A stretch of DNA of 7,777 bases, taken from a virus. Taxonomy: Duplodnaviria; Heunggongvirae; Uroviricota; Caudoviricetes. The stretch lies in IMG/VR virus record IMGVR_UViG_2667527998_000003, positions 1 through 7,777 of that record; one strand, 5' to 3'. Below, one piece after another: positions 45-3,937 of the stretch. Below the pieces are notes generated by a model. It had not been told where the DNA came from and did no database searches. It saw nothing but the letters and a program-made list of their open reading frames with translations. Numbering within the stretch: the first letter of the stretch is position 1; the number at the start of each line of letters is the position of its first letter. Both the position numbers and the translations under genes were made by a program.

Positions 45-239
45 TCAGGCTACCTCACCCGTCCCGGATACCGAGAACGTTTCGTCCAGCAACTGGAGAG
101 AGTTCGACGGTGGCATCATTGCCCATGCCGGAGGCGCTGGAGGTTTCGGCTGAGGATGGCACAGGGCATTTTCCTTTGACGAGCACCCGACCACCATTAT
201 CAAGCTTGCGCCGAAGAGCATCATTTTCAGCTTTCGCAT
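45..239 (-). CDS. Rz1: Rz1-like o-spanin (outer-membrane lipoprotein), embedded in the +1 frame of Rz and extending about 10 nt past the Rz stop
   Basis: 64-aa translation [21 protein letters not shown]... has a lipoprotein signal with lipobox Cys near residue 19 and a proline-rich mature part ([11 protein letters not shown]), resembling lambda Rz1 as I remember it. ATG at 239..237 is preceded by an AAGGAG Shine-Dalgarno about 8 nt upstream. Confidence 0.85.
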
Positions 240-459
240 CAGCTAACTCCTTCGTGTATTTAGCATCGAGTGCATCAGCATCACGCTGGCGCTGCTGCAT
301 GTCAGTAATGGTTGCGTTCGCCAGCTTCAGTTCTCCGGCGTTTTTGTCGCGCTGCTCTTTGTAGGTAATGGCGTTATCACGGTAATGATTAACAGCCCAT
401 GACAGGCAGACGATGATGCAGATAACCAGAGCGGAGATAATCGCGGTGACTCTGCTCAT
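55..459 (-). CDS. Rz: Rz-like i-spanin (inner-membrane spanin subunit)
   Basis: From ATG 459..457 the protein begins [34 protein letters not shown]..., which matches the lambda Rz N-terminus as I recall it, with an N-terminal TM segment and coiled-coil middle. The start overlaps the endolysin stop (ATGA) and a GGGGGA RBS lies upstream. The track ORF start at 474 is a TTG and less likely. Confidence 0.85.
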
Positions 460-989
460 TGATCTATCCCCCAACAGGCTAATGCGCTTTCCTGGTCACG
501 ACGAATAACCTGTCCATAGCAGTTATTTGAACGTATGCGGCAATCGCGCCCAACATCTTTTATCCACCAGCGAATCGCCTCGCATGCGCCCTTACGATCA
601 CCGGCATTCAGCCGCTTATAAAACGTCGACGGGAAACACTTACCGGGGCCAATGTTATAGGGGCAAAATGACGCTATACCCGCTTTCTGGGGTTCGGTCA
701 GAGGTACTTTAATATTGCGCTCCACCCATGCCAGCGCCTTATCACGTTCAATAGCGTTAACCTGGTCACATTTTTCCTTCGACAGCTTCATTCCCGGTAT
801 GACAGGCTTACCATCCACCATTGTGGCACCACGACAGATGGTCCATATGCCAGAACCATCACGGTATGCCGTTGTGTGATTACCCTCTTTTTCGTTCAGA
901 AACTGGTCAAGTATCTGGGGAGCAGACGCGCCTGCGGCAATCAGCGCCAGAACAGCAGCCGACAGGCCGTATTTGATTTTTGCGCTCAT
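456..989 (-). CDS. R: SAR endolysin, T4-lysozyme-like (GH24) muramidase with N-terminal signal-anchor-release domain
   Basis: 177 aa with a Gly/Ala-rich weakly hydrophobic N-terminus ([18 protein letters not shown]), a catalytic E-x8-D-x5-T triad ([16 protein letters not shown]) and a C-terminal CWG motif, resembling phage-21-type R21/RrrD endolysins. It sits between the holin region and Rz. No obvious Shine-Dalgarno precedes the ATG. Confidence 0.9.
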
Positions 990-2383: not shown

Positions 2384-2458
<75 letters not shown>

Positions 2459-2461
2459 ATA

Positions 2462-2537
<76 letters not shown>

Positions 2538-2539
2538 AC

Positions 2540-2616
2540 TGGACCGCCACCGGGGACTCGAACCTCGCACACTCAACTTAAAGGGTTGACGCTCTTTCCT
2601 GATGAGCTAGTGGCGG
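2540..2616 (-). tRNA. atypical tRNA-like gene; anticodon loop reads UUU but with C at position 33 and one T-stem mismatch; possibly a degenerate or variant phage tRNA
   Basis: Reverse complement CCGCCACTAGCTCATCAGGAAAGAGCGTCAACCCTTTAAGTTGAGTGTGCGAGGTTCGAGTCCCCGGTGGCGGTCCA has a perfect 7-bp acceptor stem (CCGCCAC/GTGGCGG), TTCGAGT T-loop, anticodon stem TCAAC/GTTGA, loop CCTTTAA and encoded CCA. The D-loop is non-canonical and the T-stem has an A-C mismatch. Confidence 0.5.
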
Positions 2617-2617
2617 T

Positions 2618-2693
2618 TGGTGGCCCTTGCTGGATTTGAACCAGCGACCTGGCGATTATGAGTCGCTCGCTCTCACCACTGAGCTAAAGGGCC
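2618..2693 (-). tRNA. tRNA with CAU anticodon, most similar to tRNA-Ile2 (lysidine type, ileX/ileZ-like); elongator Met not excluded
   Basis: Reverse complement GGCCCTTTAGCTCAGTGGTGAGAGCGAGCGACTCATAATCGCCAGGTCGCTGGTTCAAATCCAGCAAGGGCCACCA has perfect acceptor and T stems and anticodon loop CTCATAA. It is close to the E. coli ileX sequence as I remember it. Phage ileZ genes occupy this position downstream of Q. Confidence 0.8.
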
Positions 2694-2702
2694 GGGCGCA
2701 GG

Positions 2703-2731
2703 ATAATAACGTTACGAAATCAATGTTGCAA
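2703..2731 (-). promoter_or_regulatory. sigma70-type promoter for the tRNA cluster
   Basis: On the minus strand: -35 TTGCAA (2731..2726), 17-bp spacer, -10 TATTAT (2708..2703), then GC-rich discriminator CCTGCGCCC running into the tRNA 5' end at 2693, as is typical of stable-RNA promoters. Confidence 0.5.
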
Positions 2732-2795: not shown

Positions 2796-2828
2796 CACAA
2801 AAAACCCGCTTGTGGGCGGGTTTTGTTT
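2796..2828. terminator. intrinsic terminator hairpin with U-tracts on both sides; tR'-like for the minus-strand late leader
   Basis: Stem AAAACCCGC (2801-2809) pairs with GCGGGTTTT (2816-2824) around a 6-nt loop. The minus strand reads GCGGGTTTTTTGTG after the stem and the plus strand reads TTTTGTTTG. It is near-identical in architecture to the hairpin at 4398-4424. Confidence 0.65.
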
Positions 2829-2874: not shown

Positions 2875-2903
2875 AATATATGCCTTTCAATCTACTTTTG
2901 CAA
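2875..2903 (-). promoter_or_regulatory. candidate late promoter (pR'-like) overlapping the 3' end of the 229-aa gene
   Basis: Minus strand: -35 TTGCAA (2903..2898), 17-bp spacer, -10 TATATT (2880..2875), with an A-tract upstream. The predicted start near 2868 gives a 45-65-nt leader ending at the 2801-2824 terminator, the classic pR'-tR' arrangement. A -10-like GATACT in the early transcribed region could be a pause element. Confidence 0.45.
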
Positions 2904-3575
2904 CACTTTGCTTTGAAAATGCCGTCTTTTTTTTGAACGTGTTCTCATTACAAACAATAAAGCCTCACTATCCAGTCGGTGAAAAATGTGTTTCATTGCA
3001 ACCCAGTGACGAGTAAATGTTTTGGACCAGTTTTTAGTTGTCACTCCCGCCAGTAATGCCAGCTCCTGGTATTCATAACCTTCCCCACCAAAAAGTTCTG
3101 CTTTTACTGCCTGCGCCGCCAGCCAGATTAATTTTTTCAGGCGTTCCTGCGTTTTCCCTGCAATTTTTCTGGTACCGGATTGAGCATTAAATTCATTCCA
3201 CGCCCACTGTGTTATCGCGATCTGATATTCCCAACAAATACTCCCGCTGTAACACCACAACAACCAGGCTTTATAGTGCTCTTCAAGAGACAGAACAGCC
3301 CGCCGCCACGATGATGTCGAAAACTCAACCGGACTGACCAGAGGAATTGACGTCCCCTTCGCCAGCGATTGCTTTCCCGGGATTGGTGGATTATCCCGCG
3401 TTATCATTTTTCCAGTCACTTCATCGCGGTACCGGATTTTTTTACGCCTGTAACGCCCTGTATCGAACATGGCATTCTCTTGCCAGGCTTCAAGCTGACC
3501 TTTTGTTGCCCCACTCAAATCAGCGGTGGCGATAATGAGCTGCTCACGCACAAACTGTAAATACTGGTTATTCAT
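2892..3575 (-). CDS. putative late-gene antitermination protein (Q-like), 227-229 aa; assignment mainly positional
   Basis: Intact ORF directly downstream of rusA (start overlaps the RusA stop; ATG at 3575..3573, alternative GTG at 3581) and directly upstream of the promoter, terminator, tRNAs and lysis genes, which is the canonical Q position. I do not recognise the sequence itself with certainty. Confidence 0.45.
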   Translation of the reverse strand: MNNQYLQFVREQLIIATADLSGATKGQLEAWQENAMFDTGRYRRKKIRYRDEVTGKMITRDNPPIPGKQSLAKGTSIPLVSPVEFSTSSWRRAVLSLEEHYKAWLLWCYSGSICWEYQIAITQWAWNEFNAQSGTRKIAGKTQERLKKLIWLAAQAVKAELFGGEGYEYQELALLAGVTTKNWSKTFTRHWVAMKHIFHRLDSEALLFVMRTRSKKRRHFQSKVLQK

Positions 3576-3937
3576 GCGCACCCCAGTTCTGTGATTTTTA
3601 TCCCCAGCCGCCCACCAGGAACGAGCTGACCGCGCACAATATTGATTTCATCAAACTGCTCGTCGTCTATAAGTAGTCCAGCATGCGTCAGCGCATCCAG
3701 CGGTGCCTTCAGGATATTGTCCAGGTCACGACGGCGCTTATCCGGTGGCTCTGCAATAATCTTTATCGCCAGCCTTCCGGACAGGTTTAATTTCAGTCGC
3801 TGCTGGCGAACAATTAGCGCCACATCACGGCGATAACGCTCACCGGCTTTTGATACAAAATATGTGCTGCCACGACGTCGCCAGTAGGTGTTCACCGTTG
3901 GCGGGTAAGGCAAAACAAATTCTATGCGTTCGGTCAT
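3572..3937 (-). CDS. rusA: RusA-family Holliday junction resolvase
   Basis: 121 aa MTERIEFVLPYPPTVNTYWRRRG...PPDKRRRDLDNILKAPLDALTHAGLLIDDEQ... aligns by eye with E. coli RusA (conserved DRRRRDLDN and DALT.AG..DD.Q blocks). Typical nin-region location. Confidence 0.85.
   Translation of the reverse strand: MTERIEFVLPYPPTVNTYWRRRGSTYFVSKAGERYRRDVALIVRQQRLKLNLSGRLAIKIIAEPPDKRRRDLDNILKAPLDALTHAGLLIDDEQFDEINIVRGQLVPGGRLGIKITELGCA

Follow-up and report, generated by a model that had tools for sequence, protein, structure and literature searches.

An argN-derived tRNA gene with a UUU anticodon and C33 in the late region of a lambdoid Escherichia coli prophage

The closest described counterpart of the gene reported here is argN, which encodes tRNA-Arg(UCG) in the ileZ-argN-argO cluster of Stx2 and other lambdoid phages, and in Stx phages these three genes occupy the same place in the late transcript as the tRNA cluster analysed below. 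A second point of comparison is phage T5, whose tRNA-Lys escapes the PARIS defence and rescues infection (PMC11464382; PMC12409363), and phage tRNA-Lys genes also overcome a PrrC system, PrrC170 (PMC11555353). Phage tRNAs have recently been recast as a counter-defence against tRNA-cutting immunity, with the tested cases all coming from large virulent phages such as T5. The third is yeast tRNA-Leu(GAG), which carries a natural C33 and in which a C33U swap had minimal effect (PMC13492127).

The window, by which we mean the whole stretch of 7,777 nt that was analysed, is the late-gene control region of a lambdoid E. coli prophage. Its minus strand carries four tRNA genes in the order Ile2(CAU), a gene with the anticodon UUU, Thr(UGU) and Gly(UCC), and the second of these, hereafter the UUU gene, is the subject of this analysis. 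The window allele is already labelled tRNA-Lys in RefSeq and the gene as such is not new; no published description of its peculiarities was found in the literature searched, which is not proof of novelty.

The UUU gene and its late-region setting

The gene has exact boundaries (Table 1) and encodes an RNA of 77 nt that reads CCGCCAC UA GCUC AUCAGGAAA GAGC G UCAAC CCUUUAA GUUGA GUGUG CGAGG UUCGAGU CCCCG GUGGCGG U CCA. It can be drawn as a cloverleaf with stems of 7, 4, 5 and 5 bp in which 20 of the 21 pairs are standard, the acceptor stem being Watson-Crick in all seven pairs, the T-loop reading UUCGAGU and the 3' CCA being encoded. The anticodon loop is C32-C33-U34-U35-U36-A37-A38. The universally conserved tRNA nucleotides U8, A14, G18-G19, A21, U54-U55-C56, A58, purine 37 and the 3' CCA are all present, and the one departure is at the U-turn nucleotide U33, where the gene has C33. 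Further irregularities are a D-loop of 9 nt with U15, which gives U15·G48, and an extra A at 20a, together with the mismatch A51·C63 in the T stem.

ARAGORN called the gene tRNA-Lys(ttt), and the Rfam tRNA model (RF00005) matched it at 44.4 bits (E = 4e-7; gathering score 29), which is far beyond chance although the lowest score in the cluster, where the three neighbours reached 65–73 bits. The window allele shows none of the marks by which a pseudogene would be recognised (loss of the fold or of core nucleotides, a sub-threshold score) and is a genuine tRNA gene. Minimum free energy (MFE) folding did not recover the cloverleaf, but it also failed for the canonical Ile2 and Thr neighbours and was therefore uninformative; the energy of the cloverleaf was evaluated in its place and proved iso-energetic with the MFE structure. 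Among 156 unique tRNA sequences from 1.97 Mb of phage and prophage DNA, a base other than U at position 33 was confined to the clade of the UUU gene, one dubious Ser call aside.

The original prediction, made by reading the letters of the window, had described a gene with C33 and an apparent UUU anticodon in a four-tRNA cluster, with a perfect acceptor stem, a proper T-loop, an encoded CCA, neighbours 1–2 nt away, an A-C mismatch in the T stem and an odd D-loop, and each of these features was recovered here. Scoring placed the gene between a normal high-scoring tRNA and a sub-threshold match, the two outcomes that the prediction had set against itself.

Table 1. Features discussed in the text, with positions in the window unless another locus is named
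Feature	Position	Strand	Evidence or source
tRNA gene, argN-derived, anticodon UUU and C33 (RefSeq: tRNA-Lys)	2540..2616	-	ARAGORN, Rfam, argN alignment, covariation
C33 of the UUU gene	2583	-	direct reading
UUU anticodon	2582-2580	-	direct reading
A37 and A38	2579 and 2578	-	direct reading
A51·C63 mismatch (T stem)	2565/2553	-	direct reading
U73	2543	-	direct reading
Encoded CCA	2542-2540	-	direct reading
ileZ-like tRNA-Ile2, anticodon CAU, first gene of cluster	2618..2693	-	ARAGORN, Rfam
tRNA-Thr(UGU), copy of host thrU with one difference (A9G)	2462..2537	-	ARAGORN, Rfam, thrU comparison
tRNA-Gly(UCC), identical to host glyT (75/75)	2384..2458	-	ARAGORN, Rfam, glyT comparison
Late antiterminator Q (PF06323), directly upstream of tRNA cluster	2892..3581	-	E = 3.7e-91; RefSeq annotation of homologous locus
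pR'-like sigma-70 promoter match, TTGCAA-17-TATATT, at end of Q	2875..2903	-	consensus match only
GC-rich hairpin with T-runs on both strands, tR'-like terminator	2801..2824		direct reading
Second promoter-like site, TTGCAA-17-TATTAT, about 10 nt upstream of Ile2 gene	2703..2731	-	consensus match only
Lysis genes downstream of cluster (lysozyme 456-989, Rz 55-474)	55..989	-	gene annotation
STnc100 copies in related prophages	L108 2265-3380, L219 3703-4818, L002 792-1003, L114 2841-3049
8-nt-loop alleles (E. coli M18 and PG20180057; also M1, M3 and CI5)	L217 1201-1278, L218 1201-1278

The four tRNA genes are packed 1–3 nt apart, so that the UUU gene, separated by 1 nt (2617) from Ile2 and by 2 nt (2538-2539) from Thr, stands among three canonical tRNA genes. 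The minus strand of the window reads, in order, a DnaC-like loader, DnaB helicase, a Q-type antiterminator of family PF06530, a DUF968 fragment, RusA, the PF06323 Q, the tRNA cluster, lysozyme and Rz. From the lambda-type organisation of late regions, late transcription presumably starts at the pR'-like match where Q ends, and polymerase modified by Q would pass through the terminator-like hairpin into the tRNA genes. As a member of the late operon, set between Q and the lysis genes and packed with three tRNAs, the UUU gene is expected to be co-transcribed with them after Q antitermination; judged by its match to the consensus, the second promoter-like site could be a Q-independent promoter for the tRNAs. 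A role as the prophage integration site was ruled out, since with Q on one side and the lysis genes on the other the gene is not at an end of the prophage.

Several observations concern the neighbourhood itself. The CAU tRNA, called "Met" by ARAGORN and in several GenBank phage records and "Ile" by PGAP, is a recurrent annotation inconsistency; it is presumably of the lysidine-modified ileZ/ileX type. In K-12 the corresponding host genes lie in thrU-tyrU-glyT-thrT (L220), whereas in the prophage Thr and Gly (2384-2537) stand 3 nt apart, with tyrU and the spacers of the host absent, and they look like host tRNA genes captured and re-packed by the phage. Weak sub-threshold matches (22–23 bits) to isrK/isrJ, sRNAs of Salmonella prophages, were found on the minus strand at 2799-2872, between the pR'-like promoter and the terminator hairpin, where the RNA is probably a 6S-like pR' leader RNA. 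Between the tRNA cluster and lysozyme, the minus-strand open reading frames 1055-1684 (209 aa) and 1753-2007 (84 aa) had no Pfam match; at locus L001 a class II holin and a YdfR-family gene fill this space, and the lysis cassette of the window therefore differs. Two unrelated Q-type antiterminators, PF06530 (4511-4927) and PF06323, lie about 1 kb apart with rusA and a truncated DUF968 gene (169 aa versus 349 aa in L001) between them, which suggests a mosaic junction of two late-control modules. In related prophages the STnc100 sRNA family is represented by one to four copies in tandem just downstream of the tRNA clusters (Table 1), and an AgvB (anti-GcvB) match was found at L114 3051-3110; the window itself contained neither STnc100 nor AgvB matches.

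Descent from argN and the change at position 33

Alignment of the UUU gene with Stx2-phage argN extended over the acceptor, D and T arms and included A51·C63 and U73. The two genes share A20 and U15 in the D arm, their length of 77 nt, the encoded CCA and the slot 1 nt after an ileZ-like gene downstream of Q; A20 is retained because the D loop AUCAGGAAA is of the same length as that of Stx argN. A homologous scaffold in the post-ileZ slot is thus present in the window, although the Arg anticodon with C35 is not, as U35 stands in its place. The loop CUUCGAA of argN is CCUUUAA in the UUU gene (U33C, C35U, G36U), pair 30-40 is G-C in argN and A-U here, pair 27-43 is U-A here, and pairs 3-70 and 7-66 are wobble pairs in argN but Watson-Crick in the UUU gene. 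Downstream, argN is followed by argO and stx, whereas the UUU gene is followed by the host-derived Thr and Gly genes. The earlier suggestion of a diverged phage argN-like tRNA is upheld by this alignment and by the shared slot. Its reading of the anticodon arm as one of Arg(UCU) type with two changed positions in the loop was approximate, since the relative is UCG and three loop positions differ (33, 35 and 36); in comparison to the common UCG relative there is also a compensated change at pair 30-40 and a change of 27-43 from U·G to U-A.

Descent from the host lysT family found no comparable support. E. coli lysT-family tRNA-Lys(UUU) shares the anticodon, C32 and A37-A38 with the UUU gene, and differs from it in the acceptor stem, the D loop, the anticodon stem, A73 (here U73) and U33 (here C33). 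Alignment revealed no specific kinship with host lysT beyond universal tRNA positions, and the closest relatives of the gene are argN genes.

The history of the family was read from an alignment of 43 unique members from public viral contigs, in which 96.3% of cells agreed with cloverleaf pairing as compared with 29–53% in controls with slid partners. Relative to the argN majority, the whole Lys clade carries compensated changes at 7-66 (U-A to C-G), 27-43 (C-G to U-A) and 30-40 (G-C to A-U). Since these six substitutions amount to three pairs in which Watson-Crick pairing is preserved, the anticodon changed from Arg to Lys under selection for the fold, and the pattern cannot be put down to a dead gene that drifted. 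The existence of a rare argN variant whose anticodon is UCU makes a stepwise route from UCG through UCU to UUU plausible; the anticodon probably passed along this route from Arg to Lys while the cloverleaf was kept by compensatory substitutions.

A sister lineage with the same scaffold has the loop CUUUUAU (U33), a perfect T stem, a compensated 4-69 pair and an Rfam score of 53 bits. It occurs in L108 and in about 20 E. coli genomes, many from rodents, and is rarer than the C33 type; in the dominant Lys sub-lineage U33 has been replaced by C. With argN as outgroup U33 is ancestral, and U33C, and perhaps G51A, arose on the branch to the window type. No other derived changes can be assigned to that branch, and both of these weaken canonical features.

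Five genomes of the sister lineage have an anticodon loop of 8 nt, CUUUUUAU, with one extra U in the U-run, and these alleles (45–47 bits in Rfam) are still annotated tRNA-Lys. The scaffold thus combines a constant anticodon stem and U-run with variation at positions 32/33, at position 38 and in loop length. An 8-nt anticodon loop is the architecture of classical +1 frameshift-suppressor tRNAs. It is conceivable that an odd anticodon loop on a UUU tRNA alters slippage at A-rich sites, for example the G GGA AAG-type tail-chaperone sites of lambdoid phages, and both the natural 8-nt loops of the sister lineage and the perturbation of the U-turn by C33 would fit such a role. The loop of the window allele is of the normal 7 nt and the proposal is purely speculative; we consider it highly improbable.

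Distribution, alleles and decay

Among 5,426 complete E. coli genomes, 798 (about 15%) carry the UUU gene or a close variant of it, and 514 carry the complete four-gene cluster. In a survey of representative genomes, one per species, its anticodon arm was not found outside E. coli and Shigella flexneri. Exact copies of the window allele account for 35% of E. coli carrier genomes, as against 91% for the adjacent Ile2 gene; of the 3,057 E. coli genomes with Ile2, 2,776 match it at 99% identity or more. E. coli strain 4/4 is among the carriers of the exact allele, and PhiR47_1 of ECOR13 is about 97% identical over the cluster.

About half of the E. coli copies, as estimated from an evenly spaced listing, are alleles without PGAP annotation that bear damaging mutations (U8C, a D-stem deletion, G18A or G52A). 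One such allele, found in PPompW prophages of EHEC, combines a 1-nt deletion in the D stem (U12) with C70U, and another carries C4U, U8C and C11U, to which rarer alleles add either G52A or the set U15C, G18A, C25U, C28U and C63U. Two common alleles are thus hit at universally conserved features (U8C; deletion of U12) while their neighbours stay annotated. The unannotated alleles fall below the Rfam threshold, the two most mutated are lost by ARAGORN and their cloverleaf energies are worse, so that common variants in other genomes do bear the marks of pseudogenes. The most diverged allele, at L103 1501-1577 (E. coli ETEC1749), has lost U8 and G18, yet each of the four substitutions in its stems leaves pairing intact or re-establishes it, C63U turning the A51·C63 mismatch of the family into A-U.

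An unbiased sample of the slot was obtained from 108 IMG/VR loci anchored on the Ile2 gene, in which Ile2 was followed by Arg(UCG) in 63, by Lys(UUU) in 8 and by no recognisable tRNA in 35 (32%). As dead remnants hold 35 of these slots, the slot genes appear to be dispensable. The remnants (L114, L163, L171 and about 25 others) include the scrambled form CCGCCATTAGCTTATCAGGAAGAGCAGACGACACGATAACAGGG..., deletions in the anticodon arm and chimeras of argN 5' and argO 3' sequence, the last of which look like products of recombination between the two Arg genes.

These patterns can be interpreted as the mark of a relic under relaxed constraint, in which a former phage tRNA, first Arg and then Lys, was left with little or no role in translation after U33C (and A51·C63) and is now carried along by the useful tRNA genes on either side, in a late-region module that is itself successful, while slowly decaying. 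We regard this as a serious possibility, though one that stops short of being probable. The low frequency of exact copies beside Ile2, the common alleles damaged at U8 or U12 and the rarer ones with G18A or G52A beside annotated neighbours, and the unrecognisable argN remnants in the unbiased slots are all in keeping with it, as are the lowest Rfam score in the cluster, the combination of C33, the A·C mismatch, U15·G48 and U73, and the presence of at least five lysT-family genes in the host. The window allele itself is harder to reconcile with a relic, as it keeps 20 of 21 stem pairs and every universally conserved nucleotide but U33, and a functional tRNA with natural C33 exists in yeast.

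The record of polymorphism is divided. About half of the stem polymorphisms within the clade keep pairing and about half break it, as neutral transitions would, but the variants that break pairing are singletons. In the unbiased four-tRNA set 7 of the 77 sites of the UUU gene were polymorphic, which is no higher than Thr (8/76) and below the flank (27/200); Thr and Gly are poor comparators in this respect because they are copies of host genes and may be homogenised by recombination with them. UUU and A37 were unchanged in 97 IMG/VR copies (16 slot sequences), and the intact allele is present in sequenced phage records, from inducible or isolated phages, both of which speak against a relic. Paired mutation counts from L102-L104 and L003, in which the Lys-type gene exceeded its neighbours, were discounted, as these loci had been picked for its divergence and the unbiased IMG/VR set showed no excess over Thr.

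Should the gene be decaying, the slot of argN still provides a well-sampled series that starts with a working tRNA, passes through an anticodon switch and variants of the loop and ends in dead remnants. Such a series would be useful to calibrate calls of tRNA pseudogenes, as RefSeq labels some alleles tRNA-Lys and silently omits others.

Charging, decoding and tRNA-cutting defences

Judged by analogy with the yeast tRNA, C33 does not preclude decoding. Formation of t6A37 in bacteria needs 36-UAA-38 and not U33 (PMC13276492), and this motif (U36-A37-A38) is present in the UUU gene. Its anticodon is that of tRNA-Lys (U34-U35-U36), and U35, together with U34 and U36, makes up a strong signal for LysRS, one by which many tRNAs are redirected to Lys (PMC9976931). 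The discriminator A73 is also a LysRS determinant, whereas A20 is the strongest ArgRS determinant of E. coli, C35 is a major one and U73 is among the Arg determinants of bacteria (PMC9976931); the gene has U73 and not A73. Its aminoacylation identity would accordingly be mixed, combining a LysRS anticodon without A73 with retention of A20, U36 and U73 and loss of C35. ArgRS might then charge the tRNA at least partly and put Arg at AAA and AAG during late phage expression, as the presence of A20, U36 and U73 and the absence of the A73 required by LysRS would allow. We hold such a hybrid to be very unlikely, given the loss of C35, the strength of U34-U35-U36 as a LysRS signal and the probability that proteome-wide replacement of Lys by Arg is selected against; if true, a tRNA of split identity would be a natural phage-encoded recoding tRNA that also sustains translation when host tRNA-Lys is destroyed.

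Codon supply offers a partial account of the cluster. AUA, ACA and GGA occur at 11–16 per 1,000 codons in the open reading frames of the window, and a codon-supply role therefore fits the Ile2, Thr and Gly genes; it explains the Lys gene poorly, because Lys codons are common in these frames and the host has its own set of lysT-family genes.

The PARIS effector AriB acts foremost on host tRNA-Lys(UUU), in which it cuts C40|A41 (PMC12409363; PMC11464382), and the PrrC cut in tRNA-Lys falls on the 5' side of the wobble base, separating nucleotides 33 and 34 (PMC1950546). The UUU gene thus shares its anticodon with a host tRNA that both nucleases attack, and its C33 flanks the scissile bond of PrrC. 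Cleavage by AriB is lost with U39A and impaired by either A41C or U16C (PMC12409363). In comparison to host tRNA-Lys the gene has G39-U40-U41 for U39-C40-A41 and C16 for U16, and it differs at every mapped AriB determinant, although this is weak evidence because any non-Lys scaffold would differ there.

We tentatively favour, without considering it probable, the reading that the gene supplies an auxiliary decoder of lysine codons that nucleases directed at tRNA-Lys (PARIS AriB, PrrC) would not recognise. RNase P and 3' trimming would release the 77-nt tRNA, t6A37 would be added, as the 36-UAA-38 motif leads one to expect, and LysRS would charge the product through its UUU anticodon, less efficiently owing to U73 in place of A73. 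The charged tRNA would decode AAA and AAG. Escape from AriB and PrrC would be expected because the body and anticodon stem are foreign to host tRNA-Lys and C33 lies at the bond that PrrC cuts, and this would keep late phage translation running once PARIS or PrrC fire. The frequent loss of the gene would follow from its being auxiliary and dispensable. Of the fates proposed by the original prediction, a decaying pseudogene and a tRNA with altered decoding both stay in play, whereas a regulatory RNA found no support. The host origin of the Thr and Gly genes, the sister lineage with U33 and the connection to nucleases that cleave tRNA-Lys went beyond that prediction.

An RNA of tRNA shape with a Lys-type anticodon could also act without the ribosome, titrating tRNA-Lys nucleases or other tRNA-binding defence proteins as an uncut decoy. 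That overexpressed viral tRNAs might inhibit AriB by competition has been raised as a possibility (PMC12409363), and in a decoy C33 and U73, which are harmful to decoding or charging, would not matter and the invariant UUU would be explained. We think a decoy unlikely, as U39, A41 and U16, which AriB needs, are all absent and binding is not expected, and a single-copy gene in the late transcript would hardly out-compete the products of six host genes.

The same slot after Q in other lambdoid phages holds Thr(UGU) and Asn(GUU), the remaining AriB targets. The authors who described the Asn(GUU) gene of phage SfI could not account for it by codon bias (PMC3636060). The Thr(UGU) gene of SfI (L221 819-894), downstream of Q, departs from host thrU at the positions that decide AriB cleavage, with G39 for U39 and G41 for A41, and the Thr of T5 likewise has G39. 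The Thr(UGU) of the window, A9G aside, is identical to that of the host and is presumably nuclease-sensitive, which weakens the proposal that the cluster as a whole serves against PARIS. The prophage anticodon nuclease HepS, for which lambda J is the trigger, attacks the tRNAs for Thr, Ile and Ser (PMC13043305); as Lys tRNA is not among its targets, it was ruled out as relevant to the UUU gene.

If the UUU gene works as an auxiliary lysine decoder, the evasion strategy would reach temperate lambdoid prophages as well, which about 15% of E. coli genomes contain, and by another evolutionary route, in which the body of an arginine tRNA was re-tooled rather than a lysine tRNA mutated. The gene would also provide a case of C33 occurring naturally in a bacterial elongator tRNA, exactly where PrrC makes its cut.

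Compared with the known evader, the tRNA-Lys(UUU) of T5, the gene is alike in being phage-encoded and in having the UUU anticodon, 36-UAA-38, C16 for U16 and non-host bases at 39–41. The T5 tRNA is a recognisable relative of lysT with U33 and A73, whereas the gene described here has an Arg-type body with C33 and U73 and belongs to a temperate phage. As U33 and A73 are kept in this proven evader, C33 and U73 lie outside the known solution and should reduce performance. Yeast tRNA-Leu(GAG), a natural elongator with C33, differs in being eukaryotic, of another isotype and not phage-borne, and in having undergone no anticodon switch.
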